From an uncultured bacterium (lineage in GTDB: Bacteria > Babelota > Babeliae > Babelales > Babelaceae): a stretch of DNA of 64,000 bases. The stretch covers positions 256,001 through 320,000 of the forward strand of contig CAWFXL010000001.1 of assembly GCA_963819815.1 (NCBI GenBank), read 5' to 3'. Shown here one piece after another: positions 31,101 through 54,318 of this stretch; the first letter of the stretch is position 1, and each line of letters opens with the position of its first letter. The translations under genes and the position numbers were made by a program. The notes beneath the pieces are model-generated. The model had not been told where the DNA came from. It searched no databases and was given only the letters and a program-made list of their open reading frames with translations.

Positions 31101-31162
31101 AATCTATCATTGTTTTAGTGATAAGAATATGATAATCTATCACTCATTGAGTGATAAGAATA
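31101..31162. promoter_or_regulatory. Tandem operator-like palindromes TATCA-N8-TGATA, 33-bp period
   Basis: aatctatcattgttttagtgataagaata and aatctatcactcattgagtgataagaata. Confidence 0.7.
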
Positions 31163-31183
31163 ACTGGTTAAAAGAAAAGGCTT

Positions 31184-32452
31184 GTGGTAATGACTTATTT
31201 ATCAATTCTACAACGCTTATTGAGTGAGTTTTATACGAAATTGGATCATCTTGACGATATGGTGATCCGAGATGCGGTATTTCCTGAAGCGCCCAACAAA
31301 ATTAAAGTTGCCATAGGCATGAGGCGCGTGGGGAAAACCTATTTTCTTTATCAACACATCAAGAAACTCTTAGATACAGGAGTTGACAGAAAGAGCATCC
31401 TCTTCATAAATTTCGAGGATGATCGACTCCTGCCCATGGATCATCAAAAATTGGCAGCGCTCATAGAGGCTTTCTATTCACTCTATCCTGAAAACCATGA
31501 ACGGAAATGTTATCTTTTCCTTGATGAAATCCAAAATGTGGATAATTGGCCACTAGTCATACGGCGTTTCCATGATACCCTCAAGGTGGAGATATTCTTA
31601 ACTGGTTCGTCAGCAAAACTTTTAAGTAAAGAAATAGCAACTAATTTGCGTGGGAGATCACTCGCTGTTGAAATTTGGCCGTATAGCTTTAACGAGTATA
31701 AGCGGTCAAAGAAATTCACAATAGATACAGACTTATATGATAAAAGAAGCGAAGACAAGCTCAAGCAGCTTTTTCATAGCTATTTATCTGAGGGTGGATT
31801 TCCTGAGGTTACCACCTATGCGCCTGATGTGCGCCAACAAACCCTTCAAGATTACCTGGATATAGTTATATACAGAGACATAATAGAGCGCCATAAGGTT
31901 GCAAATCCGAGTATTATTAAGCACATGATTCTGTCGATGATTCATAACGTAGGCAACCCGTTTACCATTAATAAGTTTTACCATGCGCTTCAAAGTCAAG
32001 GGTATCAAACTGGAAAAGACATTCTTTATGAGTATGCGGAGCATATAGAAGATGCCTATCTTTCTTTTTTGGTCGATATACATGATAGATCGATACGTAA
32101 GGTTCGTGCTAACCCGAAAAAAATATATGCAATAGATCCAGGATTAGTGAGATCCCTTGTGCTTAATTTCAATAGAGATATGGGAAGACTCTTTGAAAAT
32201 GTTATCTTTCTTGATTTGAAGCGGCTTGGATGTACTATAAGCTATTATTTTACGTCAAAACGCAACGAAATAGATTTTGTGGTGGAAACTCCACGAGGGG
32301 ATAAAAAATGCTTGCAGGTAGTGTGGGAGCAAGACCATACACTAACTTTTGAACGAGAACAGCGGGCACTTGAAGAAGGCATGAAAGAATTACACGTTGA
32401 GGGTGAAATAATAACACTCGATTCATACCTTGAAAAGGGATTACCTCTTTAG
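31184..32452 (+). CDS. AAA_14 / DUF4143 ATP-binding protein
   Basis: GMRRVGKT, INFEDDRL, FLDEIQ, TGSSAKLLS, GGFPE, KIYAIDPG, EIDFVV...QV. Confidence 0.9.
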   Translation: MVMTYLSILQRLLSEFYTKLDHLDDMVIRDAVFPEAPNKIKVAIGMRRVGKTYFLYQHIKKLLDTGVDRKSILFINFEDDRLLPMDHQKLAALIEAFYSLYPENHERKCYLFLDEIQNVDNWPLVIRRFHDTLKVEIFLTGSSAKLLSKEIATNLRGRSLAVEIWPYSFNEYKRSKKFTIDTDLYDKRSEDKLKQLFHSYLSEGGFPEVTTYAPDVRQQTLQDYLDIVIYRDIIERHKVANPSIIKHMILSMIHNVGNPFTINKFYHALQSQGYQTGKDILYEYAEHIEDAYLSFLVDIHDRSIRKVRANPKKIYAIDPGLVRSLVLNFNRDMGRLFENVIFLDLKRLGCTISYYFTSKRNEIDFVVETPRGDKKCLQVVWEQDHTLTFEREQRALEEGMKELHVEGEIITLDSYLEKGLPL

Positions 32453-32576
32453 CCCGGAAACTTCCCGATTATTCAGTGCCGTATTCATAACACAAGATCA
32501 TTTCCTTATTCTCAAAGAACGGGATTTAAGGTATACTTCACAAGTAAGTTTATATTGATTTACCAAAGGTGCACCG

Positions 32577-33044
32577 ATGAAAATGTTACGCGTATTCTTA
32601 TTACAAGATGTCGAGAATGTTGGTATGGCTGGCGAGATTATTAAAGCGGCTGAAGGGTTTGCTCGAAACTATCTGATACCCAGAAAACTAGGCCAAGAAG
32701 TAACGATGAAAAATGAAGCTTCGTTTGCTCACCGTGTAAAAACGATTGAAAAGCGTGAAGAAGTGGTTGCTACAAAGACCTCTATGCTTGCAGAAAAAAT
32801 TAAAGGCGTACAGTTGGTACTCAAGCGTAAAGTCCATGATGATGATCAACTCTATGGCTCGATAAGTCCTCGTGAAATTGTTGATGAGCTTTCTGCTCAG
32901 CAAAATATCACCATTTCAAATAGCCAGGTGATTATCGATAAAGCCATTAAGACTAAAGGCCTGCATACGGTTATCATTAAGTTATCCTCTAAATTGCAGC
33001 CAACGCTTAAAATAAAAATTGTTCCTGAAGCTACTACTGCGTAA
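32577..33044 (+). CDS. rplI: 50S ribosomal protein L9
   Basis: V.LLQDVENVG..G.I....GFARNYLIP; LYGSI. Confidence 0.95.
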   Translation: MKMLRVFLLQDVENVGMAGEIIKAAEGFARNYLIPRKLGQEVTMKNEASFAHRVKTIEKREEVVATKTSMLAEKIKGVQLVLKRKVHDDDQLYGSISPREIVDELSAQQNITISNSQVIIDKAIKTKGLHTVIIKLSSKLQPTLKIKIVPEATTA

Positions 33045-33046
33045 CT

Positions 33047-34411
33047 ATGCAAAAAACTGGTACTCAAAAAAAACAGAAGAGTGGACTTGCCGAGCGTGTG
33101 CTTGGCAGGACACTTCCTTTTAGTATAGAAGCAGAACGAGCAGTACTTGGCTCTTTGCTGCTTCATGATGGCTACTTTGCTGCCATCGCGGATGTACTGG
33201 TTCCCCAGGATTTTTATAGCTTAGCTCATCAGACTCTGTATAAGAGTATGCATGAAGTAGTCGCACGCAGAGAGCGACTTGATATGATTACGCTGCAAGA
33301 TGAGCTTGAAAAAAAAGATGTGCTTACTCAGATCGGTGGGATCTCCTATCTTCTATCGTTACAAGAAGATATTGCCTCAGTAGGGCTCATTGAACAGCAT
33401 GCAAAGATTATCAAGGAAAAAGCGGTACTACGTGAGCTCATTCAGTCAGCTACCGATATCATTACCAACTGCTATGCGCAGGATGATAAAGAAATAGAGA
33501 CCGTCCTTGATGAAGCTGAGCAGACGATCTTTAGAATATCTCAAAAGCGGGCACAGCAGAGCTTTGTTAAAATCGATGTCTGCCTTAAAAAAACCTTTGA
33601 GCATCTTTCTAATATACAGTCGCACGATAAAACGATTACCGGTGTAGCAACCGGTTATAAGAAGCTTGATGAGATGACTAACGGGTTCCAACCAAGCGAC
33701 TTTGTGGTACTTGCTGCTCGGCCATCGATGGGTAAGACTGCACTTGCCATGTGTATTGCTCGACATGCAGCTGCCCAGAATCTCTCAGTAGGATTCTTCT
33801 CACTTGAGATGTCTGCAGAGCAGCTCACCTTGCGTCTGCTTTCAGCAGAGGCGGGTATTCCCCATCAAAAGATTCGTAATGCGAATATCAGCTCTGAAGA
33901 GTGGGTAGAACTTACCTACGTAGCTGCGCGGTTCGGTGCTATGAAGATGTTTATTGATGATACCGCCATGCAAACTATTATGGATATCCGCACTAAGGCG
34001 CGCAAACTCAAGGCGGAGCAAAATCTTGATATGCTTGTTATTGACTATCTCCAGCTCCTGCATGGTCACCGCCAATATGAAAATAGGCACCAGGAAGTAT
34101 CAGATATTTCACGGTCGTTAAAAGCGTTAGCCAAAGAGCTTAATATTCCGATTGTAGCCTTATCGCAGCTTTCTCGAGCCGTTGATAGTCGTGTTGATAG
34201 AAGACCGATGCTTTCCGATCTTCGGGAATCGGGAGCTATTGAGCAGGATGCTGATCTTATTATGTTCTTATATCGTGATGTAGTGTACAACCCCGACACA
34301 GAAAATCCTGCGCTTGCTGAGCTTATTCTTGGTAAGCATCGTAATGGTCCGACGGGCACCATGTACCTGCATTTCCAGAACAATCTGACACTCTTTCAAG
34401 ATATGGACTGA
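33047..34411 (+). CDS. dnaB: Replicative DNA helicase
   Basis: EAERAVLG, AARPSMGKT, FSLEM, IDYLQL, LSQLSR, SDLRESGAIEQDAD, KHRNGPTG. Confidence 0.97.
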   Translation: MQKTGTQKKQKSGLAERVLGRTLPFSIEAERAVLGSLLLHDGYFAAIADVLVPQDFYSLAHQTLYKSMHEVVARRERLDMITLQDELEKKDVLTQIGGISYLLSLQEDIASVGLIEQHAKIIKEKAVLRELIQSATDIITNCYAQDDKEIETVLDEAEQTIFRISQKRAQQSFVKIDVCLKKTFEHLSNIQSHDKTITGVATGYKKLDEMTNGFQPSDFVVLAARPSMGKTALAMCIARHAAAQNLSVGFFSLEMSAEQLTLRLLSAEAGIPHQKIRNANISSEEWVELTYVAARFGAMKMFIDDTAMQTIMDIRTKARKLKAEQNLDMLVIDYLQLLHGHRQYENRHQEVSDISRSLKALAKELNIPIVALSQLSRAVDSRVDRRPMLSDLRESGAIEQDADLIMFLYRDVVYNPDTENPALAELILGKHRNGPTGTMYLHFQNNLTLFQDMD

Positions 34412-34413
34412 GT

Positions 34414-34893
34414 ATGATTATCCTTGGCATAGATCCGGGTTTATCTATAACTGGATATGCGATCATGAAGAAAGAGAAGCAGAAAACCGAAGTCTTAGAT
34501 TACGGAGCAGTCTGTTTTAAGAGTAAAAGTTCGTTAGAAAGTCGTATCGGCACCTTTTATGCTACTTTCCGTGAAAAAATTATCACAGCTCAGGTAACAA
34601 ACATTGCCTTGGAAACACCATTCCTTGGAAAGAATCCCCAAAACTTCCTAAAGTTAGGGTACATAAGGGGCATAGTCTATCTTCTTGCCGATCAGCATGG
34701 TATTGCGATTGAAGAGTTTGCTCCTCGAACCATTAAGCTGGCACTTACCGGATCAGGATCTGCTCAAAAAGAACAGGTCGCTCGGGTTATTACACGACTC
34801 TTTAAAGGAATTGAAACCCCTAAAACCTATGATGTTACCGATGCTTTGGCAGTGACGCTCTGCGGCATCTGGAAAAGCCCTCTTAGTAAGTGA
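34414..34893 (+). CDS. ruvC: Holliday junction resolvase
   Basis: ILGIDPG, ALE, IK.ALTGSG.A.KEQV, D.TDALAV. Confidence 0.93.
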   Translation: MIILGIDPGLSITGYAIMKKEKQKTEVLDYGAVCFKSKSSLESRIGTFYATFREKIITAQVTNIALETPFLGKNPQNFLKLGYIRGIVYLLADQHGIAIEEFAPRTIKLALTGSGSAQKEQVARVITRLFKGIETPKTYDVTDALAVTLCGIWKSPLSK

Positions 34894-35005
34894 TACCCTC
34901 ATCTTGTGAAAAAACCGAGTAGATTCCTTGCCCAACTCTTGCAATTTAGCGGGGTACTTTTTATAGTACAAGATATGTGAGTAGAAAAAGAATGGAAGGA
35001 GAGCC

Positions 35006-35491
35006 ATGAAGCAGAGACTCGATATTAGTAACCTCAGAAATCTTACGCGTACCCGCAGAAAAACCGGTACAACCTTAGTAGAACAGACTATTATAAACGT
35101 TCAGCAGTACTTTCTTACGCCTGGTGTTCATTGCATTACCATTGCGACCCATGAGCAAGGAAGAAGCCTCTTGCGCGTATGTCTCGATTCCCTGGAAATC
35201 TATACCAATGTCGGTATTGTAACGGTTACCACAAAAAAAGCTCCTGCGCACTATCGTGACATGTACGAAGAGCTCGAGCATGCTCAAGCTCTCTGTTTAG
35301 GAGACGGTCGCCTAGAAGAGTTTATGTTGAGCTCTTTTCAATGTGACTTCTTAGTTCTTGAATATACTCAAGAGCTCCTTGAACAGCCCTGGTTTGGTCG
35401 TTTTGAGCAGCTCTTATCGGAATATTCTGTCGCTAAATCAATTCCGGTCATTATGTTTCTCTATGATGACCAGCAGGTCACGAGAAATTAA
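35006..35491 (+). CDS. Hypothetical protein
   Basis: AAGGAG RBS, 161-aa ORF. Confidence 0.7.
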   Translation: MKQRLDISNLRNLTRTRRKTGTTLVEQTIINVQQYFLTPGVHCITIATHEQGRSLLRVCLDSLEIYTNVGIVTVTTKKAPAHYRDMYEELEHAQALCLGDGRLEEFMLSSFQCDFLVLEYTQELLEQPWFGRFEQLLSEYSVAKSIPVIMFLYDDQQVTRN

Positions 35492-35625
35492 TCCACGTTT
35501 TAGGTGGAGCAGTAGTTCTCTCAGACAGCTCAGGCTGCTGAGCAGGTATACTCGATGTGTCTGTTTGGCATCATGGTGTAACCTGTGCTATCCTGAGATA
35601 CTGGCTTTTAAGAAAGGACGATCTT

Positions 35626-36895
35626 ATGCTGAATAGAGGCTATCTCATCGGGGTGCTTACTCTGTATGCAGGTTTCAATCATCTATCATGCCTAGAAGGC
35701 TCGGGTTCATATTTTGGGCAGGAAGGTGCGGTCATTATTACGGTTCCGATTGCCGATTGTCTGCTTACGGCAGCCCAGGATATTGACACATCTCTACCAG
35801 GTGAGAGCTCCGGTGAAGGAATAGAAGATTTTTATGCGCACCTTGCTTTTTCAGCTGACTCGGGACCCAATTCATGTCCGCGTGTGCATCAGTGCCTCTA
35901 CCACGAGGCAGGGATAGTCAGGGAAGAAAAGGGTGAAGAGCTTCTCATTGAATTTCCTCACTTTTATTATTATGAGGCAGGAGTAGCACGATCAAATTTC
36001 TGGGTGCACAAAGACTCTGTTCGACCTATCAAGGATGTACCGTCTTCTTTGCTAAGGTACATTCCAGAGCCTTATATCGCCAAAAAAAGTATCCAAGCAG
36101 TGCATGACGTTCTTACGTGCTTTTACCCTGGCAAGATCCCGTAACGTCCATCTGGTATTCTCCAGGTACTCGTTTTGTGCGCAATAGAGCAGCTGACACT
36201 GATTTGCACTACGGAATCTTTGTTGTTGACCATGACAATGACTACAGTACACTCTGCCCTTGTTCATCATAATGATGCTATGATAGATACCCCAAGGACG
36301 CTTGAGCAAACAAAAAAGCTTTTTGTGAGCATACTTCGGATGTGGGTATCGGATGCACAAGGAGTTATTCCCTATGTCTTTGGAGGCTGTAGCTATATAC
36401 AGCGGTCTTCAGCCAAATGACTTTTATAGATGGGAAGGAAAGCGTGGAGATGATCTGATAAGTAATTGGCAAAGACGATGCCCACGTGGAGTACAGAGCG
36501 GTTTTGATTGCTCAGGTCTTATCTTACGAGCGGCCCAGCTTGCTGGGATAACCTACTGGTGCAAAAATACGACAACTATAGGACTGACCTTTAAAGATAT
36601 ACCTCAACAAGAGTCTTTAGAAGAGGGTGATCTTATACTTATTAAAGGGCATGTCATGATTATAAGTGACATTAAAAGAAATCTCTTTATCGATGCGGCA
36701 AGTTATGCAAGTGGCTTTGGGTGCCTTCACGAAGCATCTCTTTCAGATATGTTTGTTGAAGTGGCTACCTATGACGAGTTGCGCAAATATGCCTATGCAA
36801 ACCAGCCTCTCTCGAGGAAACATGCTAATGGCGAACCCTATACAGTTACTCCAACAGTGAGAGTGGTCCGGTTAACCGATCAAGATCAGGCTTAA
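35626..36895 (+). CDS. Exported NlpC/P60 family peptidase (several frameshifts between 36120 and 36420)
   Basis: IPYVFGG, GFDCSGLI, EGDLI...GHV split across three listed ORFs. Confidence 0.75.
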
Positions 36896-37046
36896 GCCTA
36901 GAGAATGCTCTGGGCGATTCAATGGTAGTTCCTGAGATCATAGTCTCCCACCACGAAGATTTTATCGTAAAAGTTGGGTGGCCTTCATTCTCTAAGTATC
37001 TATGACAGGCTTATCTCATAACATCCGATATTTTAAGAACAAGCTA

Positions 37047-37075
37047 TTGACCGACGGTCGGTCATTGGGTATACT
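37047..37075 (+). promoter_or_regulatory. Sigma70-type promoter with overlapping TetR operator
   Basis: TTGACC-N17-TATACT; perfect palindrome TGACCGAC-G-GTCGGTCA at 37048-37064. Confidence 0.8.
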
Positions 37076-37112
37076 GTACTTCATATAGTAGAGAATGTAC
37101 TTATGAGGAACT

Positions 37113-37736
37113 ATGATCAGAATAGTAAAAAAACCGGAAATACGTAGGGGCGAGATAGTTGCTGCTGCACGTCATCTTTTCCTTACAAAGGAGTATGACG
37201 TAGTAACTATGCAAAATATTATGGAATCTGTAGGCATAGCAAAAGGGACGATCTATCATTATTTCAAGTCTAAGGAAGAGCTCCTTGAGGCTGTGGTGGA
37301 AGATATCATCAATGAAGATTACGTGCGCAAGGAGCTTTTACTGAAAGATCTTAAAGGTACTGCTCTTGAAAAAATTCGTGCACTAACACAGATGGATAGC
37401 TTAGCTGTGCGCTATGATGCCCTGCTTGACCAACTCCATCAACCAGGAAATGCTGGCTTGCATGCACGATTGTTGGCAGTAGCCCTCATAAGAGAATCAA
37501 AGCTCTATGGTGAGTTGATTCACCAAGGATGCAAAGAGAAGCTTTTTTATACAGATTTCCCTCACGAATCTGCGGAATTTTTACTCACGGCAGTTCAATT
37601 TTTGACCGATAGGGGAATTTATCCGTGGACAAACGAGGATCTGGAACGCCGAGCACAAGCATTTCCTGCAATGATTGAGGCTCTTTTGAAAGCACCGCAG
37701 GGCTCCTTTACCTTCTTGCTCAAACGATTAGGATAA
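37113..37736 (+). CDS. TetR/AcrR family regulator
   Basis: I..AA..LF...Y...T...I....GIAKGTIYHYFKSKEELL. Confidence 0.93.
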   Translation: MIRIVKKPEIRRGEIVAAARHLFLTKEYDVVTMQNIMESVGIAKGTIYHYFKSKEELLEAVVEDIINEDYVRKELLLKDLKGTALEKIRALTQMDSLAVRYDALLDQLHQPGNAGLHARLLAVALIRESKLYGELIHQGCKEKLFYTDFPHESAEFLLTAVQFLTDRGIYPWTNEDLERRAQAFPAMIEALLKAPQGSFTFLLKRLG

Positions 37737-39893: not shown

Positions 39894-40014
39894 TCGTTAT
39901 AAAGGGTAAAGTAGCTGTCTTCAGGTACTATCCTTTTACTCTCATTGTTTTTTAATATGCATAAAACTTACTTTTAAATCGATGGTTTGGAACATTTTAA
40001 ATATTTTTTGAGCT

Positions 40015-40103
40015 AAGAACAGGGGTTTTCAGTCTTCTGAGGTAAGAAACAGGGGGGGTGTTTTTGTCCTCAGGGGCAAGAAACAGGTGGGGTGTTTTTG
40101 TCC
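40015..40103 (+). repeat. Three direct repeats AAGAAACAGG..GGGTGTTTTTGTCC (first degenerate)
   Basis: Units start at 40015, 40044, 40078. Confidence 0.75.
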
Positions 40104-40107
40104 TTTG

Positions 40108-40428
40108 AAAAAAGATTTGCTATACTGGCTCAGACTTGATAAGGGTTCGAACGCTGAGCTAGATTATGTTATCAAACATCATACAAAAGTTATCCCGATT
40201 GAGATTAAAGCAGGAAGTTCGGGTAGTTTAAAGTCGCTGCACCTTTTTATGGATCTCAAGGGATTAACTATGGCAGTGCGGTTTCTTTCATCAGCACCCA
40301 CTAAAATACCAATCAAAATATAACGTAGTGCTAACGAAGACTACATTAGCTATGATCTTCTCTCGATTCCTTTTTATCTCATAAGTGAGCTTCATCGCTT
40401 GATAGACGATGCTTCCAAAATTAAATGA
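40108..40428 (+). pseudogene. C-terminal remnant of an AAA_14/DUF4143 ATPase
   Basis: LYW.R....NAELDYV....IPIEIKAG..GSLKSL; internal TAA at 40321, then in-frame SIPFYLI; ATPase domain absent. Confidence 0.8.
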
Positions 40429-41901: not shown

Positions 41902-43044
41902 TTATTCGTCCGGGCTGAAACTCTTTTTCTTCGATGTATTGCCCAATTTGGCAAGATCAATGCTTTGGGTGATTTCAAGAGGGAGTTTATTTTTGATGAT
42001 CCCTTCTAGAGGAGAGGTAAGTATAACCTGGGTAGATAGTTTTGTCATTAGGGGGAGTAATGCTGCAGCACGATCCTCATCAAAATCGGTCATAAAGTCA
42101 TCTACAAGCAGTATTGTGCCGGTCGATCCACGGACTTTAAGCACTTGAAGTTGAGCCATTTTCAAGAGAAAGACTACCAACTTCTGTTGGCCTCTCGATG
42201 CATAGGTCCTACAGGCTTTTCCCAAATAGGTCACCACAAAATCATCTAAATGAGCCCCAAGCAGCGAGCGTTTTTGACGAAGTTCGTTCTCTTTCAGCCC
42301 AGGATAGCGCTCTATAAGATCTTGAGCTGTCATAGTATCTTGTAAATCGCTATAGGGACGAGCATAGGCGTAGTCTATAGTCACAGGTTCCTCCTGAGAA
42401 TCAGCCATCAGAGGAAAAAGCTCTCGTATGAGAAGCTTTGCTTCGGACTCAATCTGTTTTACAGCATCCAGGCGGGCTTTTTGTATCTTAAAAGAGGTTT
42501 GCAGAAGCTGCTCCGTCCAGAGCATATAGGATTCATCATCAAAGCGACCTTTAGCAAGTAGGGCGTTTCTGTTATTAAGGATAGCGCGATATTTTTGTGA
42601 AGTAGCTGCATGAGATGGATCTAAGAGGAGGACTACAGTATCTAAGAATGACCTTCGTGCAGAGGGCGCGCCCTGAATGATCTGCAGGTCATCCTCCGTT
42701 ATCGTAATAACTCGGTAAGCTTCATATAGCTCCTTATAGGAGCCGATTCCTTGCTCGTTGAGCTTAACGGTCTTCTTACTTTTCGCAAACTGAACAGATA
42801 GGGCATCAAACCCCTGTGAAACAAGGCCAAGACCGACGCCGAAGCCTTCTGCTTGAGCTAAGACAAGCTCTTTAGGAAGGTGGGTCTTAAAGGAGCGTAA
42901 ATAGCAGGCATAATGGAAAGCTTCTAAAATTGAGGTCTTACCTGACCCATTTGGGCCATGTATCAGCACAATTGGTTTCTCAAAGTCAAGGTCTAACGAG
43001 GAGAAACAGCGAAAGTTTCGCAAACTTGCCGATACAATGCGCAC
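41902..43044 (-). CDS. recF: DNA replication/repair protein RecF
   Basis: NFRCF, GPNGSGKTSILEA, G.PSARRSFLD, GAHLDD, ASRGQQK, LLVDD...D.DEDR; follows dnaN. Confidence 0.92.
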   Translation of the reverse strand: MRIVSASLRNFRCFSSLDLDFEKPIVLIHGPNGSGKTSILEAFHYACYLRSFKTHLPKELVLAQAEGFGVGLGLVSQGFDALSVQFAKSKKTVKLNEQGIGSYKELYEAYRVITITEDDLQIIQGAPSARRSFLDTVVLLLDPSHAATSQKYRAILNNRNALLAKGRFDDESYMLWTEQLLQTSFKIQKARLDAVKQIESEAKLLIRELFPLMADSQEEPVTIDYAYARPYSDLQDTMTAQDLIERYPGLKENELRQKRSLLGAHLDDFVVTYLGKACRTYASRGQQKLVVFLLKMAQLQVLKVRGSTGTILLVDDFMTDFDEDRAAALLPLMTKLSTQVILTSPLEGIIKNKLPLEITQSIDLAKLGNTSKKKSFSPDE

Positions 43045-43059: not shown

Positions 43060-44196
43060 CTATGATGCGATAGCTGCGGGAGCCGTAGGAGAGACCGGCA
43101 TAACCAAGTACGTCATCACAAATTCATCATTTTTTGACTCAAATATTAAAGGGCTAGCACTCCCCTTTAAATAGAACGTTAAGCTCTCATCCTGAAACGC
43201 CTGAATACCATTGAGCAAATAAGGAGTATAGAGCCTTATGTCGATTTTAGTGTCTTCCGACCCAGCAAAGGCAAGTTGTTCATCCAATGCACCAACTTCT
43301 TTGTTCTGGAGAGAGACCTGAACATCACGATGATTAAATGCAAAACGGGTCGCAATAAATTGATTTGATAGTAAGCATACTGAACGACGCAATGCCTTTA
43401 ACAGGCTTGAACGATCAATGGTGGCTGGACTAAAGGCATCGCGCATAAGGATAGCACGATAGTTAGGAAACTGTTCCGCAAGAACTTTCGTAAAAAAGTT
43501 AAAGAGCTCACCGGAGAATACTAACTGATTGCCACACGTTCCTAAAAATAGGGTGGTATCAGGGATTGTTTCTAAGATCTTTTTCAACTCAAAAATCGCG
43601 CGGCGAGGAAGGAGCCAATTCCTGGTCTCTTCAAAGGTTGTTTTTGAAGTTTTAACTTGAGCTAAACAATGCCCATCCGTAGTTGTCATAATAAGCTCAT
43701 GCGGAGATAGCTCAAGTAATAGGCCATTAAGGGCAACGTTCGCATTATTTTGGGGAATAAGAAAGCTGACGCTTTCAAGCATTTTCTGTAATAAAGGAGC
43801 ATCTAAAGGAAGCAGGTTCTCAATGCGTTCAGGAAAGGGGGGGAATTCTTGCGCATCTTTAATATTAAGAGAAAGATGGACACCTTGAGCTTGCAATGTG
43901 AGTTGATGTGAGCTGAGCTGACAGGTGATTGGTCCTTCGAGCTCTTTTACTACATCAAATATCCGCTTACCCGATACTAAAAATGATTCTTGTTCATCAA
44001 AGTCACTTTCAAGGAGTAAGCAACTTGACTGTAAGCTAATCTCAAGATCAGTACTCTTAAGTACAAGCTCTTTTTGACCAACTTGAAAGAGAATAGAGGT
44101 GGTTATATCAAGAGCCGTTCGCTTTGAGCAAATAGGCTGCATCGATGAGAGAATGTCAAATAAAGACTTTTGATCAACAATGAATTTTTTTTCCAT
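43060..44196 (-). CDS. dnaN: DNA polymerase III beta clamp
   Basis: STDLEISL, EFP.FP, LNGLL, TTDGH.L, FPNY, YLVMPV. Confidence 0.93.
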   Translation of the reverse strand: MEKKFIVDQKSLFDILSSMQPICSKRTALDITTSILFQVGQKELVLKSTDLEISLQSSCLLLESDFDEQESFLVSGKRIFDVVKELEGPITCQLSSHQLTLQAQGVHLSLNIKDAQEFPPFPERIENLLPLDAPLLQKMLESVSFLIPQNNANVALNGLLLELSPHELIMTTTDGHCLAQVKTSKTTFEETRNWLLPRRAIFELKKILETIPDTTLFLGTCGNQLVFSGELFNFFTKVLAEQFPNYRAILMRDAFSPATIDRSSLLKALRRSVCLLSNQFIATRFAFNHRDVQVSLQNKEVGALDEQLAFAGSEDTKIDIRLYTPYLLNGIQAFQDESLTFYLKGSASPLIFESKNDEFVMTYLVMPVSPTAPAAIAS

Positions 44197-44781: not shown

Positions 44782-45960
44782 ATGGCACTTAAAAGATCTA
44801 TTACCTTTGACATTTTGGAAGGTGCGCAGGAGTTTCTGACTGTTGGGTTGTTGGGATCCCGACAGTCAGGCAAAACCACGCTGAGCCAACTCATTTTTAA
44901 GGACCATGCTTATGTGTCTTTGGAGGATATTGAGATGCGCACTGCGGCTACAATTGAACCGCGTACCTTTCTTAATGCCAATCGTAACGCCTCCGGTTTA
45001 ATAATTGATAATTTTCATTATGTACCGGAGTTACTTTCTTACATGCAGCCCAAGGGGGGCAGCCACACACCGGGGACATATATAGTGTGTGGTCCATATA
45101 ATAGTTCTACGCTCGAATTTCTTACGGGGTACCTTGGGGAAACGTTTTCACTCAACATTTTAGAATCGCTATCCTTACATGAGCTTACCGATAATTATCT
45201 ACTGCCTCATGCTCTTGATGTAGTTCTGTATCAAGGACTTCAACCTGCAGTTTATATGAACGGTGGTGATACCAAATCTCACTATAAAAATTTCCTTTCT
45301 ACCTATATCGATAAAGATGTGCGCTTCTATGGGCAGGTTGATAATGTAACTACATTCCATACCTTTTTAACACACTGTGCTCAGTATAATGGGCATGTGC
45401 TTAATATAACTACGCTTGCAAATGAATCTGGTATAAGTGACCATACAGCTCGGCGTTGGATATCCTTACTTGAAGATCATCGTATACTTTTCTTACTCAA
45501 GCCCTATCATACTGATTTTGGGAAGAGGCTCATTAAAAGCCCCAAGCTGTATTTTTATGATCCCGGGGTTGTGTGCAGTCTTCTTAAAATAGAAGAGCAC
45601 GAGTTACCGAAGCATCGCAACAAACAGGGCCTCTTTGAATCTCTGATCATAGGCGAGCTTATGAAATGGACGCAGCAGAGAAAGCAGAAACGGCCACAGC
45701 TCTATTTCTGGCGCGACAAAACTGAGCATGAAATCGATTGTCTCATAGAGCACGAAGGGAAAGTCATTCCCGTCTCATTGCGCGGTGACCAAAAGACTGA
45801 CGCTTTTTCACATGATCTTAAGTATTGGCAAAAAGTTAGTGGTATGAAAGACCGGGGTATATGTATTTCATCAAATTCGGGCCCCCCAGAGGAAAAAGAA
45901 GACCATCTCGATATTGGATGGCGCTTTATGCAACCCTTGTTTAAAGCGATTCAGAGCTAA
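44782..45960 (+). CDS. AAA_14 / DUF4143 ATP-binding protein (degenerate Walker B and nuclease motif)
   Basis: GSRQSGKTTL, IIDNFH, KRLIKSPKLYFYDPG, YFWRD...EID. Confidence 0.88.
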   Translation: MALKRSITFDILEGAQEFLTVGLLGSRQSGKTTLSQLIFKDHAYVSLEDIEMRTAATIEPRTFLNANRNASGLIIDNFHYVPELLSYMQPKGGSHTPGTYIVCGPYNSSTLEFLTGYLGETFSLNILESLSLHELTDNYLLPHALDVVLYQGLQPAVYMNGGDTKSHYKNFLSTYIDKDVRFYGQVDNVTTFHTFLTHCAQYNGHVLNITTLANESGISDHTARRWISLLEDHRILFLLKPYHTDFGKRLIKSPKLYFYDPGVVCSLLKIEEHELPKHRNKQGLFESLIIGELMKWTQQRKQKRPQLYFWRDKTEHEIDCLIEHEGKVIPVSLRGDQKTDAFSHDLKYWQKVSGMKDRGICISSNSGPPEEKEDHLDIGWRFMQPLFKAIQS

Positions 45961-48836: not shown

Positions 48837-49004
48837 ACCTCTTTAGGTGGCAACTAGCAAGATAGTTGTGTAAGAGTTTTGTGTTTGGAAGCCTGGTAGA
48901 ATGATGCTAACTTACCATGTATAATTTTTCTCAAAGTCTTTAAGATACTAGCTCTCCTAGATAAAGCAGGGGAGCTAGGTCTATTCTCATAAGCACCTAC
49001 GAAA

Positions 49005-49029
49005 AAGCGCTCTCAGTATGAGAGCGCTT
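49005..49029 (-). terminator. Rho-independent terminator
   Basis: aagcgctctca-gta-tgagagcgctt with A run on the left. Confidence 0.7.
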
Positions 49030-49120
49030 ATACAAAATCTTAGATACGGATTTCTTCACGGAAGCATGAGAAACGGCTCAATTCTTTATTGTTCTTTCTC
49101 TAAGTTGCTTCCTCAAAACA

Positions 49121-49519
49121 TTAAGGCCAGAGTGTAATAATGGCTGCCATTGCTAACATATACAAAAGTGTATATAGCGTATCTATTGCATAGACAGTAA
49201 GCGATCCGCCAGTATAGAGAGTATTCATAAACGTAATCCTTGCAGGAAATCCAAGCCATATCAGAAATGTTATTTTCAATGCCCCATAGAGGTCCGTTAT
49301 ATGCATATAAGAAAGTATCAGGCTGAGGACATACGCAGTCACCACAAAACCTATAAAGCCGATTCCTGTCGTAGTTGGCATCGTTTTTTGTAATTCGGCA
49401 GATTTAGCATCCGAAAAATTATGACCTTCTCTCCAGGGCTGCCTAAAAAGAAAGCCGTACCAGATAAACCCGATTGCTGTGGCGACTACGCCGCATACTA
49501 TAAGAGCTACTATATTCAT
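49121..49519 (-). CDS. DUF1761-like four-TM membrane protein
   Basis: IGFIWYG.LF.QPW; WLGF; IDT.Y; AAGGAG RBS. Confidence 0.75.
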   Translation of the reverse strand: MNIVALIVCGVVATAIGFIWYGFLFRQPWREGHNFSDAKSAELQKTMPTTTGIGFIGFVVTAYVLSLILSYMHITDLYGALKITFLIWLGFPARITFMNTLYTGGSLTVYAIDTLYTLLYMLAMAAIITLWP

Positions 49520-49907
49520 GAACATCTCCTTATCTTGTTAGACAAAATGAGCCAGCACCATTGCTGGCTTTCGACGAGAGTATAGTGCCAGGCTCATGAT
49601 AAATCAACTTTTGCCACTTCAAACAACGATCTGCCACACTAGTCCCTGCCTGTATCGCCTCCTTGGAACCACTTTGACGGTATTGCTAGTCGAGGTGCCT
49701 TTACCTGCAAATACTGATCGCATCGAGCAGCTTGGGGTAGGGTGTTCAATCTTCCACCTAGTCCTTGTGGATCAATATTTACAGTGCATGAGGCTACCAA
49801 TACGTGACAGCTTGGGAGGCTGTTGAATTTCACATACAGCATGCTATGCTCAAAAAAGATTGCAATATTTGTCATAACGCTATTAAAAATAATACTAGAG
49901 GGTTCAT

Positions 49908-50534
49908 ATGACTCAGGTGCACGCATACAGAGCAGCATTCGTTGTTTTTGTAACATTCACCCCTTTTCTTATGTGCAAAAAACCATTTCTTCCCTTGAGC
50001 TATACGATAGCGCTTGTAGAAAATGAGAAGAAAGGTAAGAGCATTTCAAGGATGCTTCAATTAGCCATTAATGACGTATATGTTGGTGGGATAGTTTATA
50101 CTATTCAGCTTGATATGCGCCAGCCAAGTTTCATTAACCAGCTACATATAGAACAGTCATACCGTAATCATAAAGGATATGGCAAGGTTCTCTTATACCA
50201 AGCTTTAAAAGATATATTGCAATCAGGTAGTGCTAGTGTTGAATTGGAGCGGTGTCCCTTTGATCTGCCTTCTACGGATAATGCAGAAGAACGTAATGAA
50301 CAGCTTAAAAAATGGTATAGAAGTTTTGGATTTCAGGATGATAACAACAGTAGAATTATGAGGCTTAACCCTCGTAAGCTCTTATCTACTGAAGTTGTAC
50401 CTAACTTCACCGATAATGATATTACCTTTAGCTTCCGTAAACCGGTAACTCCTGAGCGTAGAGGTGCCCAAAGAACTGCTCAGGTTGCCTCAAAGGTTCT
50501 ACCGGCATACTTCATCATGAAAAAGCAGCGGTAG
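49908..50534 (+). CDS. GNAT family acetyltransferase
   Basis: I.QLHI...YR..KGYGK.LL; L.KWYRSFGF. Confidence 0.75.
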   Translation: MTQVHAYRAAFVVFVTFTPFLMCKKPFLPLSYTIALVENEKKGKSISRMLQLAINDVYVGGIVYTIQLDMRQPSFINQLHIEQSYRNHKGYGKVLLYQALKDILQSGSASVELERCPFDLPSTDNAEERNEQLKKWYRSFGFQDDNNSRIMRLNPRKLLSTEVVPNFTDNDITFSFRKPVTPERRGAQRTAQVASKVLPAYFIMKKQR

Positions 50535-50627
50535 TATTCAAGTCTATGATGATCTATCTCTCATACGAGCTGAATACTGAGGTCTAAATTTCTACACATT
50601 GAATGATCAGATTACAGAGAGGTTATT

Positions 50628-51995
50628 ATGGCGAAAAGATATATTCTTATAGGTCTAACATTCTGCATGGCTGGGGGTCTCGCAGCAAGCGATAGTACTC
50701 AGAAAACTCCGTCATCCTTTACTGCGGGCAAAGCTCTTGGAGCTCTAGGTTTTGCAGGAGCAGCTGCCTACTACGTCTATAGTCATCCTGTAGTGCAATG
50801 GGACACCGTCGGTTTAGGAATGCTAGGAACAGCTGCAGTAAGTTATCTTGGCTATAAGCTTCTTAATCGACAAAAAGAAGTTGAGAAACCGTTGATTGCC
50901 GAAAAACCCTGTCGGGAACCAGTCTTACCGGCGTTCCAACAAAAAATTACGAGTGCTCTCTTTTCAAGTGCTATTGGAGATGCTTTGGGAAGGGTAACCG
51001 AGTTTATTAAGTCACCAGAAGCGCAGTTTGAACGTTATCCTGGTGGCCTTACTTCATTTGATAAGTTTCATCCTGATGATTGGCAGGGGATCCCAAGAGA
51101 ATTTAGGCAAAAAAGAATAGCTCCTTATACGGATGATACTGCCATGGCACTACTTGTTGCTCAGGTCCTTATCGAGTCACAGCACAATAACTGGGATAGA
51201 GATAGTACTATGGGCCACATGGCTGAATCCTTTGTTAAAGATTTAGATAATGCCGACTACGGCTGGGCTGCGGGATACCGTGCTCCCGGTAATGCTTGCC
51301 TTGCGGCTGCACATGTCCTTCAAGGAAAAGCGGCTGCTGAAAAGGCCCGAGCGCGTTGGTGGGACGTTAAGGCAAGCTCTGCTGGAGGATGCGGTTCTGT
51401 TATGCGTGCATTTCCCTTTGGTCTGGTATTTTCCAAGGATCCTCAAAAAGCAAAACTGTGGGCTGTAGAACATTCAAAAATTACTCATGGAGCCCCGAGT
51501 GCTCTTGCTGCATGTGCAGCCATGGCTCTTGGCACCGCAGAGGCTCTCAGGGGAGAGAAAGATCCTCGCTCTATTGTTAACCTTATGATTGAGGCTGCCA
51601 AGGAATATGACGCCGTTACCGCTCAAAAAATGAGCAAGGCTCTTTCCTATGCATCCCAGGCACAAGATATTCTCGGGCGGACATCAGTTAGAGAAGCCTT
51701 TTTAACAAAGGAATTTTTTGATTTTCATAAAAAGGTCTTCAATGAATTTCAAGGATGGTCTGGGCAAGATGCCATAGCAGCTACTGTCTATGTATTTGCT
51801 CTCTTTCCTAAAGATATAGAGTCTGCATTGTATGTAAGCGTCCATACTCCCGGAGATAGTGACAGCATAGCAGCAATGTCTGGGGCTCTCATTGGCGCCT
51901 ATTCTGGAATCATGCCTGACAATAAGATGGTGCAGTCAATTGAAGGTGCTTCTTATATGAGAGAAATAGCTCAACGGATAAGCGATAATCGTTAG
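50628..51995 (+). CDS. ADP-ribosylglycohydrolase (ARH/DraG family) with signal peptide and hydrophobic N-terminal extension
   Basis: IGDALG..TE, YTDDTAM, GCGSVMR..P, ITHG, GDSDSIAAMSGAL.GA. Confidence 0.92.
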   Translation: MAKRYILIGLTFCMAGGLAASDSTQKTPSSFTAGKALGALGFAGAAAYYVYSHPVVQWDTVGLGMLGTAAVSYLGYKLLNRQKEVEKPLIAEKPCREPVLPAFQQKITSALFSSAIGDALGRVTEFIKSPEAQFERYPGGLTSFDKFHPDDWQGIPREFRQKRIAPYTDDTAMALLVAQVLIESQHNNWDRDSTMGHMAESFVKDLDNADYGWAAGYRAPGNACLAAAHVLQGKAAAEKARARWWDVKASSAGGCGSVMRAFPFGLVFSKDPQKAKLWAVEHSKITHGAPSALAACAAMALGTAEALRGEKDPRSIVNLMIEAAKEYDAVTAQKMSKALSYASQAQDILGRTSVREAFLTKEFFDFHKKVFNEFQGWSGQDAIAATVYVFALFPKDIESALYVSVHTPGDSDSIAAMSGALIGAYSGIMPDNKMVQSIEGASYMREIAQRISDNR

Positions 51996-52036
51996 AATGT
52001 TATCCCGAACTGGTTAATGAGTATAGAAAAAAAATA

Positions 52037-52075
52037 AGCAGGAAGGCCTTTATCAAAAGGGCTTTCCTGCTCTTT
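52037..52075. terminator. Probable bidirectional terminator
   Basis: agcaggaaggccttt ... aagggctttcctgct between convergent genes. Confidence 0.7.
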
Positions 52076-52118
52076 CATAAAATACGAAAATGCTCGCAAG
52101 ACAAATTAGTTCAGGAGA

Positions 52119-52559
52119 CTATTCATCTCCATAGCCTCTAAACTTAGACTTTTTGCCCTTCATATCATCGCGAAATCCACAACCCACTGTGTGCAGACGC
52201 GCTACACTCGCTTTCTTTTTGCGGTGTTTGCTTTTCTTAGGTGCCTCTTGGGTTGTATGCTGTTCGATTGCATGAGCAAGCTGCCTTCCTGAAATACGAG
52301 AAAACTGCTCCATTGAAATACCTTGCGTTATTCTTTCCAAAAATCTCAAGATGTCATGACGGTTCTGTGGATTAAGGTTCATTTGACGCATTTGGGCAAG
52401 GGCCTCATTTTCAACAGTCCGCCTTTGAGCTGGAGTAAGGCTTTCTCCTATACGCTGTGCATGCTGAAGTAATTCTTCTTCAAGGGGATCAAATGCGACA
52501 AGAAAGCTGCTTAAAGAGACCATACTCATAAGAAGTAAGGTACAGAAAAACTTTTTCAT
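52119..52559 (-). CDS. Hypothetical exported protein with basic C-terminus
   Basis: AAGGAG RBS, MKKFF signal peptide, PKKSKHRKKK. Confidence 0.75.
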   Translation of the reverse strand: MKKFFCTLLLMSMVSLSSFLVAFDPLEEELLQHAQRIGESLTPAQRRTVENEALAQMRQMNLNPQNRHDILRFLERITQGISMEQFSRISGRQLAHAIEQHTTQEAPKKSKHRKKKASVARLHTVGCGFRDDMKGKKSKFRGYGDE

Positions 52560-52837
52560 GGAACTCCTTGAAGTATGTCGAGGTATATACTACAAGTATT
52601 TAGGCCCCGACAGCTGCAATGTTTTTATTATTAATATTATATATTTAATTATATAAGAAAATATTGTTTGGTCAAGAGGTGTTAGGTAGAGTTCTTGGAG
52701 GTCCTAGCTCTACTGGGAGCTGTACAAGAAGATCATTAAGGTCAATATGTACTTGTAATTGATGTATAACCATGACTTATGGTAACCCCTTTGTAACATA
52801 CTATGCTGGTCAGCCGGCCTTTGAGTTAGAGTAAGGG

Positions 52838-54178
52838 TTATGTAGTAATTTCCATGCGTTGTGCCACCTGCCTGAAGTTCTTTAAGGCACCAGCGATCGC
52901 ATATAGGGGGTACGTATGTACTCTGGCATCTTTTTCATAGTTCAGTGTTGAAAAGCGAATGCCGAAAGGCGAGTGTGGGTGGCTATCTAAAAACATCATT
53001 AAGCTCTGGAGTCTTTTTTCAGTGCCACTTTTAACCTCTATAGGTATTATCGATTCATTATCTTGCATGAGATAATCAACTTCAGCCTGACTGTTTCGCG
53101 CCTGTCTCACCCAATAGTATAACTCAGAGTCCATATGGGGGTTTGAATACCCAAGGAGTTCTTGGCCTACAAATGATTCAACTATTTCACCTTTATTAAT
53201 AAGCGCTTCAAGTGGATTCAAAAACCAAGCACTCATATCTTTTTTTAATACTGCTTGGGCAAGTGCAACATCTAAAAAGATTACCTTAAAGGAAGCGCTT
53301 TGAGTGTGAGCTCCAAGAGGAATGCCTTGGCCCGCAGAATGCGTTACCTTATGAATTACGCCTGCTGTAGCCAGTAAGTCAAGTGCAGGAGCTAATTCTC
53401 TCTTGCGATAATCTCCTTCGATTGAGCTATATCTAAATTGTTGCGTTAAAAAACGAGGTACATTTTCAAAAATGATATCGACGTATTTTTCTTGAAATTT
53501 AGTCGCATACTTTTTAAAGTCCTGCTTGTATGCATTGATGAGATCATGTTGGATAGCAAAGCATTCAAGGGGATCTCGCGTTTCTTTCCAGTGGTGGACT
53601 ATCTCCGGCATTCCACCTAGAGCGATATACTGACCAACTGATTCAAGCAATTTCTTATGCAGAGGTTCGCTGAATGGCGCTTGGGATCTTAAAATCTCTT
53701 TTATAATGCCTTCGTGACCAATTGCATAGAGAAACTCTATAAATGTCATAGGATACATATGTAGGAAAGTTACTCTACCTACGGGAGCGCCGATTTTTTC
53801 AAGGGTAAAATCTAACAATGAGCCAGCAGCAATGATATGAATTTGGGGAATCATTTCGTAAAAATAGCGAAGAGCTAGGACAATCTGTGGAGCTGTTTGA
53901 ATCTCATCGAAAAAAAGAAGCACTTTCCCAGGGATAATTGGCCGGTTAAGCTCAAGGGAAAGGTCTCGCAGAATTCTTTGAGGGTCAAGGTCCTTTTCGA
54001 AGTAACCTTTCATCTCTGGCTTTAATTCAAAATTGATCTCTATAAAATCGTCAAAAGATTTTCCCAGTTGCCTGACTGCATAGGTCTTGCCCACCTGCCT
54101 TGCTCCTCGCAACAAGATAGGTTTGGGCCGGGGACTAAGTTTCCACTGCTTTAGGTCGTAGTCTATAAGCCTCTTCAA
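52838..54178 (-). CDS. AAA_14 / DUF4143 ATP-binding protein (intact motifs)
   Basis: GARQVGKT, FFDEIQ, AAGSLL, GGMPE, EVDYL...IPIEVKSG. Confidence 0.92.
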   Translation of the reverse strand: MKRLIDYDLKQWKLSPRPKPILLRGARQVGKTYAVRQLGKSFDDFIEINFELKPEMKGYFEKDLDPQRILRDLSLELNRPIIPGKVLLFFDEIQTAPQIVLALRYFYEMIPQIHIIAAGSLLDFTLEKIGAPVGRVTFLHMYPMTFIEFLYAIGHEGIIKEILRSQAPFSEPLHKKLLESVGQYIALGGMPEIVHHWKETRDPLECFAIQHDLINAYKQDFKKYATKFQEKYVDIIFENVPRFLTQQFRYSSIEGDYRKRELAPALDLLATAGVIHKVTHSAGQGIPLGAHTQSASFKVIFLDVALAQAVLKKDMSAWFLNPLEALINKGEIVESFVGQELLGYSNPHMDSELYYWVRQARNSQAEVDYLMQDNESIIPIEVKSGTEKRLQSLMMFLDSHPHSPFGIRFSTLNYEKDARVHTYPLYAIAGALKNFRQVAQRMEITT

Positions 54179-54198
54179 AAGATCCCTTTCATCATACG

Positions 54199-54318
54199 AT
54201 GGTCAAAAAACAAACCTAACTTTGACCTGAATTGGTCGAAATTCAAACCAATAATAACACAATTATGGTCAAAAAACAAACCTAATTTTGGCCTGACTTG
54301 GTCGAAAATCAAACCAAT
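54199..54318. repeat. Four ~21-bp direct repeats at exact 33-bp period
   Basis: (A/T)TGGTC(A/G)AAA..CAAACC.A. at 54199, 54232, 54265, 54298. Confidence 0.88.

Follow-up and report, generated by a model that had tools for sequence, protein, structure and literature searches.

In the stretch of DNA analysed here (the window: 64,000 nucleotides of contig CAWFXL010000001.1, from an uncultured bacterium of the Babelaceae; G+C 42%), two intact genes and one gene remnant of the AAA_14/DUF4143 ATPase family lie beside arrays of short repeats that recur every 33 or 34 bp. The arrays are best explained as each gene's own operators: dimers of the encoded winged-helix protein would bind them, neighbouring dimers would cooperate and, in the clade of the gene called paralog 1 below, binding would repress transcription. 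As a whole, and on the strength of sequence comparison, this is probably correct, and its components can be graded. That each array is paired with its own paralog and kept by selection, and is not a quirk of the window genome, is well supported, as is a regulatory role; from the same material we infer binding by each gene's own product, cooperation between its dimers and a repressive effect on transcription. The direction of regulation is most doubtful for arrays of the paralog 3 type, many of which lie just upstream of the core promoter.

The window contains five family members, four intact genes and one remnant, within 53 kb (1624-54178), a striking local density for a reduced genome, the longest contig of which measures ~1.6 Mb; a preliminary description had listed three, to which the genes at 44782-45960 (plus strand) and 1624-2823 (minus strand) have to be added. 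The three repeat sets that it reported were all recovered. Paralog 1 (31190-32452, plus strand; 420 amino acids, as in the database copy, with an alternative GTG start at 31184) is preceded by two repeat units (31101-31129 and 31134-31162) that are 86% alike, 33 bp apart and each furnished with a 21-bp palindrome of 8-5-8 architecture. These palindromes, CTATCATTGTTTTAGTGATAA at 31104-31124 and, 33 bp on, CTATCACTCATTGAGTGATAA at 31137-31157, are the putative operator sites 1 and 2; they stop 32 nt short of the ATG at 31190. Paralog 3 (52838-54178, minus strand; 446 amino acids, TTG start) has four 20-bp sites on the same strand with a period of 33 bp (54199-54218, 54232-54251, 54265-54284 and 54298-54317), with 20 nt between the nearest site and the start codon (the site's edge at 54199 is 21 bp from the first base of the codon, 54178). 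Two site variants alternate to form a 66-bp unit that is present twice in copies 93% alike, which suggests that arrays grow through tandem duplication of site pairs; both copies of TTGGT-N10-ACCAA are exact palindrome-type matches. The third array (40010-40103, plus strand) has two good units of the form AAGAAACAGG..GTGTTTTTGTCC (40044-40069 and 40078-40103), 34 bp apart and in agreement at 28 of 30 positions, and a degenerate unit near 40010.

A scan of the window for repeats (lags 10-120, at least 25 of 30 positions matching) found non-coding matches at only four places, these three arrays and position 11976, with all remaining matches in repetitive coding sequence; 30 first-order Markov simulations of the window gave zero repeat matches, so that the arrays lie far beyond chance. 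Within the window the motifs of paralog 1 and paralog 3 are each restricted to their own locus. The placement of the repeats immediately upstream of each gene holds for paralogs 1 and 3, but not for the remnant (40087-40323, plus strand), where no start codon follows the array; the array instead stops 5 bp before homology to paralog 3 begins, at about 40108, the equivalent of residue ~355 of 446. What is left is the C-terminal ~20% of a paralog-3-type gene, with the N-terminal ATPase and winged helix gone. It was recognised by tblastn with residues 338-398 of paralog 3 (38% identity, 1.7e-10), and it matches the C-terminal end of Pfam DUF4143 at 2.2e-4 (21.5 bits, under the cut-off of 28.1). 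A deletion that started just behind the operator array and extended into the gene would explain this most simply. A promoter-like match at 40098-40126 is probably not a promoter and was discounted, since its TATACT coincides with the codons L-Y-W of the residual frame.

The case for selection comes from other genomes. Relatives of paralog 1 were collected by an alignment scan of a species-representative genome collection; the best 80 of 119 confirmed loci were used, 75 of them with enough upstream sequence, and the site counts cover 76 regions of 130 nt. The proteins are 50-70% identical and come mostly from Chlamydiota, with others from Pseudomonadota, Myxococcota, Dependentiae and elsewhere. 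Their upstream regions hold 134 copies of the clade motif TC[CA]TT-N5-AA[GT]GA (at least 9 of 10 specified positions) in 10,006 nt, as against 187 copies in the other 831,402 nt, a 60-fold enrichment. Of 76 pairs of neighbouring sites, 67 have a spacing of exactly 33 bp, and the background copies include no pair at 33 bp. Two sites (24 regions) and three sites (23) are the common states; 8 regions have one site, 2 have four and 19 have none. The autocorrelation check that the preliminary description had proposed gave the expected result, a mean peak of 0.401 at lag 33 upstream of paralog 1 relatives (0.287 for 279 control promoters, taken from intergenic sequence of those loci), and a repeat of at least 15/21 at that lag is found in 52% of the paralog 1 regions and 1.1% of the controls. 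Per kb, the motif density of 13.4 upstream compares with 0.25 within the gene, 0.34 over the 300 nt that follow it and 0.22 in all other sequence, and a reading of the sites as transposon-like termini, which the low downstream density contradicts, was rejected.

The sites of the window, TATCA[TC]T-N5-AGTGATA, are a diverged form of this clade motif, and the variant at site 1 also occurs at two other loci (L004 and L034). It was these comparisons that bore out the claim that each paralog has a repeat sequence of its own: the repeats are enriched and conserved among relatives, and the motif varies with the protein lineage. That the arrays are neutral relics of local duplication, or chance, is already contradicted by the same comparisons and is vanishingly improbable; the 66-bp unit of paralog 3, duplicated at 93% identity, does look recent, and the remnant array does sit at a deletion junction, but nothing comparable arises in 30 simulated windows, the enrichment over control promoters is strong, and position, spacing and arms are conserved in at least 55 loci whose proteins are ~65% identical.

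The preliminary description read 33 bp as three turns of the DNA helix. A constant linker of ~12 bp accounts for the period equally well. In a quick tree, a clade of 59 rows (98 in the SH-like approximate likelihood-ratio test, SH-aLRT) has 21-bp sites (8-5-8) with period 33, and basal rows, 50-55% identical to the window protein, have other, 22-bp palindromes (8-6-8), mostly with period 34, among them CTGTCTnT..AnAGACAG, CTATCCCT..AGGGATAG and CTGGGT..ACCCAG. Site length and period are 21 and 33 bp in 55 loci, 22 and 34 in 13, 22 and 33 in 6, and 21 and 32 in 2. The period thus tracks site length, which implies a linker of ~12 bp; it also implies one evolutionary switch and not many. Within this tree, near-identical cassettes from bins labelled Methanobacteriota archaeon, Bacteroidetes and Verrucomicrobiae (L003, L020, L001 and L008) nest among Chlamydiota; they are either recent transfers or mis-binned chlamydial contigs.

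In the paralog 1 clade the sites overlap promoter elements. A consensus aligned from loci with the three-site architecture and an exact TGnTAnnnT reads CTtTCCTTG..T.AATGAtA, a linker with TG.TAttCT,.TCATTAaA.GAAGGAAAGAT, a second linker, CTaTCCTT.aA..AAGGAAag and the ATG; the arms are conserved and the spacers and linkers variable, despite proteins that are only ~65% identical. In 36 of the 76 regions TGnTAnnnT precedes a site at a constant distance, and the offset is 7 in 35 of the 36. The TTG at the inner edge of site 1 is fixed, and with the extended -10 element 17 bp further on it makes up a promoter of the sigma-70 type. Site 2 starts within the -10 hexamer and spans the start point, and the right arm of site 3, AAGGA, lies at the distance from the ATG that is usual for a ribosome-binding site. 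Paralog 1 of the window follows the plan of its clade, with a putative -35 element TTGTTT (31110-31115) inside site 1, a putative extended -10 element TGATAATCT (31130-31138) 17 nt past it, and site 2 from 31137, opened by the last two bases of the -10 element and spanning the expected transcription start; the third site has been lost.

The mechanism that would follow is a simple one. A dimer would sit on each 20-22-bp palindrome by way of the winged helix that lies between an ORC-like AAA+ domain and a PD-(D/E)xK-like domain, and two to four such dimers would be separated by one site plus a 12-bp linker (a period of 32-34 bp), a spacing that would put them side by side on roughly the same face of the DNA and so favour cooperative binding. 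In the paralog 1 clade, with sites over the -35 element, the -10 element and start point, and the ribosome-binding site, occupancy would close the promoter (negative autoregulation); the arrangement is read as repression on the ground that protein on sites 1 and 2 would keep RNA polymerase out. The outcome would be a self-contained, dosage-limited expression cassette able to function in any recipient host. Its biological sense would be a dosage control that moves with a solo, horizontally mobile gene whose product carries a nuclease-like domain.

With the -10 element ahead of both, sites 2 and 3 of the paralog 1 clade would be transcribed, and the right arm of site 3 (AAGGA, next to the ATG) would pair with the left arm. 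The palindromes might on these grounds be taken mainly for hairpins of the 5' untranslated RNA, that at site 3 masking the ribosome-binding site. This is very unlikely to be their main role: site 1, upstream of the -10 element, has the identical motif; the sequence of the arms, beyond their pairing, is conserved over 55 loci; arrays of the paralog 3 type lie mostly upstream of the likely promoter; and Rfam has no family that matches the window at its gathering score, and nothing relevant for eleven of the loci at E values up to 0.1. Hairpins could nevertheless add a subsidiary layer of regulation. The Shine-Dalgarno sequence coincides with the right arm of site 3, AAGGAAAG (for example at L060, L040 and L019), and either a bound protein or a hairpin in the mRNA would also obstruct the initiation of translation there.

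At paralog 3 of the window, a promoter may be contained in the array (TTGTTT, 17 nt and TGTTATTAT, the last in the linker at 54252-54264, minus strand); lying between the second and third sites, it would leave two sites within the leader. Elsewhere, in our reading, many arrays of the paralog 3 type end at or just upstream of a likely -35 or -33 element, the latter placed by the Bacteroidota promoter consensus.

Relatives of paralogs 3, 4 and 5 were sampled from plasmid and phage records (30 regions) and scored with one fixed statistic, a repeat of at least 16/20 at lags 31-34 within 200 nt upstream. Such a repeat precedes 12 of 16 paralog-3-type loci; among 295 control promoters, 10 have one (Fisher p = 7.5e-13). 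Of these ten control matches, three are paralog 1 arrays read from a divergent neighbour, the control at L017 is an orphan array that resembles a motif from Collinsella, and the remaining matches precede unrelated genes; at 15/20, two further controls prove to be family-related, L078 (a fourth paralog 1 array, on the other strand) and L077 (another DUF4143 gene). The paralog 3 relatives come from six phyla and two phage-labelled contigs, and their arrays, of 2-4 units, are unrelated in sequence and have the 32-33-bp period in common. They belong to Criblamydia (L081), Segatella (L082, L086), Fusobacterium (L083), Glaesserella (L084), Collinsella (L099), Acinetobacter (L100), Vescimonas (L102), the phage-labelled L109 and L110, and L071; the exceptions are L085, with a 66-bp repeat, L101, with a single palindrome, and L103 and L002, with nothing convincing. 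L100 and L101, whose proteins are 71% identical, have the motif TTTTATGCGCATAAAAG in common, and pairs that are at most 55% identical mostly have no common motif. A half-site AAAAnGTG for the whole paralog 3 type was tried and dropped, at least two copies occurring in just 4 of 16 loci (2 of 295 controls).

None of 17 paralog-4/5-type loci shows a repeat by the same statistic at lags 31-34. Many of those inspected have, by eye, one palindrome or inverted repeat near the start codon; the clearest, 35-45 bp in extent, are at L094, L097, L088, L068, L019 and L023. L095 and L096 have direct repeats at 22 bp, four of them in L095. Five distant paralog-1-like plasmid genes have palindromes at periods of 39-40 bp, or no array. 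The ~33-bp period that the preliminary description took as common to these genes therefore holds for the subfamilies of paralogs 1 and 3, but not for the paralog-4/5 type or for these distant plasmid genes, and its enrichment over control promoters is confirmed in the two subfamilies. The 32-34-bp array is a trait of two subfamilies and not of the whole family; promoter-borne, lineage-specific symmetric repeats look general for the family.

The gene's own protein is the likely binder because there is no conserved partner gene, because the motif varies with the protein lineage and because the fold has a winged helix. Among 333 open reading frames flanking the paralog 1 relatives within 2 kb, the largest family occurs at 7 of 79 loci and consists of other DUF4143 paralogs; with no neighbouring gene conserved, the mobile unit is the gene with its array. 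Where two family genes are adjacent (L019, L023, L002 and L071; the first two are divergent pairs), each keeps its own motif. In these four loci a paralog-1-type gene adjoins a gene of the paralog 4 or paralog 3 type, and the paralog-4-type gene of L019 and L023 is preceded by CCGGCTAATCTGAAGTT.AACTTCAGATTAGCCGG.

The protein itself was modelled for paralog 1 alone. The final AlphaFold2 (AF2) model was built on 143 sequences selected from the 10,025 matches (E of 1e-3 or below) that a search of 1.84 billion representatives returned, and has a predicted local distance difference test score (pLDDT) of 95 and a predicted template modelling score (pTM) of 0.93; it supersedes an earlier model from 27 close sequences (pLDDT 62.8) in which the middle domain was unresolved. 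An AAA+ core (approximately residues 1-200) is followed by lid helices and by a winged helix made of helices 240-252, 260-269 and 276-288 and of strands and a wing at 292-314, with a conserved S-x-R-K..NPKK; residues 331-409 form the alpha-beta-beta-beta-alpha-beta core typical of PD-(D/E)xK nucleases. The Pfam matches and this model agree with the earlier description of these proteins as a P-loop ATPase with a middle domain resembling a helix-turn-helix (HTH) and a C-terminus resembling a restriction endonuclease. Structural matches found by Foldseek are led by the archaeal AAA+ proteins PAB2304 (2qen) and SSO1545 (2fna), with E = 3e-8 and 4e-8, template modelling scores (TM-scores) of 0.44-0.51 and 14% sequence identity, followed by Orc1/Cdc6 and subunits of the origin recognition complex (ORC); the matches include the DNA-bound 2qby and 2v1u, plus 1fnn, and overall TM-scores are 0.25-0.51. 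In the model, the likeness to Orc1/Cdc6 is that of a common plan and not of family membership. A homodimer prediction for two copies of paralog 1 (alignment A2) returned a score of 0.00 and, run with no controls, gave no answer; it is evidence neither way.

The canonical catalytic motif of these nucleases is D..(D/E)-x-K. The designation ATPase-nuclease fits paralog 3 (D..E-V-K) and the remnant (D..E-I-K) by sequence, but not paralog 1 (D..Q-V-V), paralog 4 (D..S-L-R) or paralog 5, in which the motif is degenerate. In the wider paralog 1 subfamily the motif is D..Q-V, and at least 90% of the 143 sequences keep the Q.

Several observations weigh against the operator reading or parts of it. Paralogs 4 and 5 of the window have no convincing site. 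The main motif is missing from the 19 regions of the paralog 1 clade noted above, most of which have another palindrome, and arrays are doubtful or absent at L037, L038, L064, L101, L103 and L002. Some paralog-3-type units (L081 and L082) are not obviously palindromic. A scanner for consensus promoters made no call in the paralog 1 or the paralog 3 array of the window, at paralog 1 because TTGTTT fits only 3 of 6 consensus positions. From one operator class to the next, the third helix of the winged helix stays highly conserved, and specificity may therefore lie elsewhere. The proposal that motif and HTH co-vary is sustained at its top column only: in a naive comparison of operator arms with protein positions, the first rank goes to residue 280, in the third helix, and ranks three and four to residues 279 and 264, but the winged helix is not enriched overall, with 7 of the 30 top columns as against 62 of 310 variable columns, uncorrected for phylogeny. 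In one contrast of sister loci, TTCCTT arms go with IGKD at the start of helix 3 (L035) and GTCTT arms with TGRE (L039 and L071). Covariation and this contrast together are a weak sign of recognition by the winged helix. Finally, there are arrays without a family gene, at 11989/12022 in the window and at L017, which point either to another binder or to loss of the gene.

The orphan array of the window sits within a gene-free gap of 960 bp that no family gene adjoins, and consists of three copies of AAACAGG-N2-CCTGTTT (11691-11706, 11989-12004 and 12022-12037); those at 11989 and 12022 are perfect 18-bp palindromes, AAACAGGTACCTGTTT, exactly 33 bp apart, and the third copy is the one at 11691. 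Shuffled sequence would be expected to hold 0.24 copies of the motif. In pairwise alignment the orphan unit and the remnant repeat (AAGAAACAGG..TGTTTTT) have 72% column identity, a loose likeness. The orphan array may mark a lost family gene or be a second target of the same lost protein. At L017 (approximately 11530-11615) three palindromes of the CACGTTTTTCCAACGAAAAACGTG type, 33 bp apart, closely resemble the Collinsella array of L099; they are flanked by an aminotransferase gene and a small open reading frame resembling a ribbon-helix-helix (RHH) protein, with no DUF4143 gene.

Orphan arrays such as these, and a third helix that is nearly invariant across operator classes, are what would be expected if the arrays were operators for some other trans-acting regulator of the host and the DUF4143 protein did not bind them at all; paralog 1 of the window, moreover, follows an RHH-MazF pair with a DNA-binding antitoxin. 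This is quite unlikely. The RHH-MazF pair is not conserved among the relatives of paralog 1, nor is any other neighbour (7 of 79 loci at most); the array moves with the gene across phyla; and paralogs of a single genome have unrelated motifs (in the window and at L019, L023 and L071). A separate regulator would have to be transferred together with the gene every time and yet never be linked to it.

If the gene's own protein is the binder, it might use the array chiefly as a platform for loading or assembly, that is, as an origin-like, centromere-like or nuclease-inactivating dock, on which for example three dimers would form an ORC-like hexamer in the manner of the origin recognition boxes (ORBs) or iterons that accompany initiator genes. 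In its fold the protein is nearest to Orc1/Cdc6 on origin DNA, three sites are a common full architecture (23 of 76), and a 32-34-bp period found in two subfamilies that are only ~22-24% identical could be a structural constant of an assembly; four direct repeats at the iteron-like distance of 22 bp precede the paralog-4-type gene of L095, and archaeal orc1/cdc6 and bacterial dnaA genes adjoin repeats that are bound by their products. This is nonetheless a rather unlikely account of the arrays. The sites fall on the -35 element, the -10 element and the ribosome-binding site, a position that an operator requires and a loading site could do without; work that included no formal scan for unwinding elements showed no AT-rich one with inverted boxes on its flanks; one chromosome has up to five copies within 64 kb, a number ill-suited to replication origins; and no motif copies lie on the 3' side. 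A platform is compatible with autoregulation, and both could coexist.

A further proposal goes beyond the operator role and takes the arrays as the place where an ORC-like AAA+ oligomer assembles. Each palindrome would take one winged-helix dimer, three phased palindromes would thus yield a hexamer on DNA, and each lineage would carry a private, fast-diversifying DNA 'password' in its own promoter. The promoter copy would keep the ATPase and its nuclease-like domain parked and self-repressed, until invading DNA, loss of ATP or competition for the sites freed or re-targeted the complex. Taken in its entirety this is unlikely; if true, the sequence specificity of a very abundant candidate defence family could be read from genomes. 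Arrays that nucleate an ATP-dependent assembly would bear on how ORC-like ATPases came to be recruited into conflict systems, whereas arrays that are ordinary autorepressor sites would be a useful and modest result.

The remaining family members and the neighbourhood of each gene complete the description of the window. The full-length paralogs are only ~20-27% identical to one another, and the closest relatives of the window proteins come from Parachlamydiales-type genomes. Paralogs 1, 3 and 4 exceed the gathering cut-offs of both PF13173 (AAA_14) and PF13635 (DUF4143) and match the PDC-S01 profiles of PADLOC; paralog 1 scores 2.5e-36 (AAA_14), 1.9e-16 (DUF4143) and 5.5e-104 (PDC-S01), paralog 3 has its PDC-S01 match at 1.1e-134 in an alignment starting at residue 1, and paralog 4 scores 2.7e-40 (DUF4143) and 4.2e-54 (PDC-S01). 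Paralog 4 has D-N in its Walker B motif. The membership of paralog 5 is based on tblastn with paralog 4 (4e-15). Neither of these two genes has a phased array, the best upstream repeats at lags 31-34 being 11/20 for paralog 4 and 12/20 for paralog 5, whose sole upstream feature is a 12-bp palindrome, TTATGATCATAA. NCBIfam has no family for any of the four window proteins, and a sequence search of the PDB found no relative of paralog 3.

Upstream of paralog 1 lie genes for a Fic/DOC protein (28671-29909, minus strand) and for an RHH antitoxin and MazF/PemK toxin pair (30445-31031), so that the stretch 28671-31031 forms a small island of conflict-type genes adjoining it; downstream are housekeeping genes, DnaB-like at 33047 and RuvC-like at 34414. 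Paralog 4 is separated by a gap of 585 bp on its 5' side from a gene resembling that of the beta sliding clamp (43060-44196, minus strand) and a RecF-like gene (41902-43044). Paralog 5 lies ~1.2 kb from a C-terminal fragment of a tyrosine recombinase (window 1-450, at the window edge). Its sole plasmid relative (Simkania pSn, L098) has integrase genes on both flanks, and a paralog-1-like gene of Sulfuricurvum (L104) is followed by an integrase. These neighbours hint at a tie to integrative elements.

Two published surveys treat PDC-S01 (AAA_14/DUF4143, COG1373), in their accessible text, as a defence candidate whose validation is pending; they rank it fourth by frequency among the defence systems of prokaryotes and count 29,494 copies in bacteria and 9,986 in archaea (PMC12988326, PMC13356809), and one of them gives its composition as an ATPase with a fused PD-(D/E)xK domain (PMC12988326). 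A role in defence is accordingly a candidate one, PDC-S01 being a database label. The mentions in these texts concern abundance or domain composition and include no upstream repeats, sequence specificity or autoregulation; the literature on DUF4143, so far as its text could be searched, consists of a figure legend, restriction endonuclease domains fused in other systems, and a table entry 'Unknown'. PDC-S01 is absent from the main text of the preprint that introduced the 'embedded' PDC candidates, and searches of the literature on Cdc6, restriction endonucleases, conflict systems and guilt-by-embedding returned nothing on upstream repeats. Within the searchable literature the arrays thus appear to be undescribed, as the preliminary description had supposed of the pairing of these genes with such repeats.

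In a family that is very abundant and otherwise opaque, the arrays make DNA specificity directly testable and are the first concrete handle on PDC-S01. They imply that its members are sequence-specific DNA binders built on the Orc1/Cdc6 plan, with a likely recognition sequence for each lineage to be had from the genome, and they predict a stoichiometry, dimers on 20-22-bp palindromes with two to four per promoter. They would explain how a solo mobile gene for a nuclease-like protein doses itself safely in any host, and they offer what are predicted to be natural orthogonal pairs of protein and operator. Orphan arrays, and arrays by gene remnants, can also flag sites at which a family gene has been lost.

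Among known systems, the preliminary description turned to iterons. Iteron plasmids have a winged-helix Rep protein and, within an origin, direct repeats usually ~22 bp apart, an AT-rich region and DnaA boxes, and Rep autorepression acts through inverted repeats. What the present family has in common with them are lineage-specific repeats adjacent to the gene and, as predicted here, their reading by the gene's own winged-helix protein. The term iteron-like does not fit, however: the units are mostly tandem palindromes, as in operators, with a period of 32-34 bp, and they are chromosomal, present in several copies and removed from any replication context. Plasmid iterons or a replication origin were rejected as an explanation on these grounds, with mostly palindromic units, five chromosomal copies and overlap with promoters. 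The nearest architectural analogue is probably the habit of initiators (Orc1/Cdc6, DnaA and plasmid Rep) of having binding-site repeats next to their own genes. As in Orc1/Cdc6 with its origin recognition boxes and DnaA with its DnaA boxes, an AAA+ domain is followed by a winged helix or HTH and repeats lie beside the gene; unlike these, the family has an extra PD-(D/E)xK-like domain, tightly phased sites over the core promoter, many paralogs per genome and no unwinding element that was seen, and the TM-scores are 0.25-0.44.

The nearest functional analogue would be the circuit of the controller (C) proteins of restriction-modification systems, in which a separate small HTH regulator acts on tandem palindromic C-boxes, two sites in number. 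The family differs from it in having the DNA-binding domain built into an ATPase of ~420-450 amino acids with a nuclease-like tail, in having two to four sites at 32-34 bp and in lacking a methylase partner. The likeness lies in tandem palindromic operators within the promoter of a mobile, nuclease-bearing defence unit, where cooperatively binding dimers would set the dosage of their own gene.

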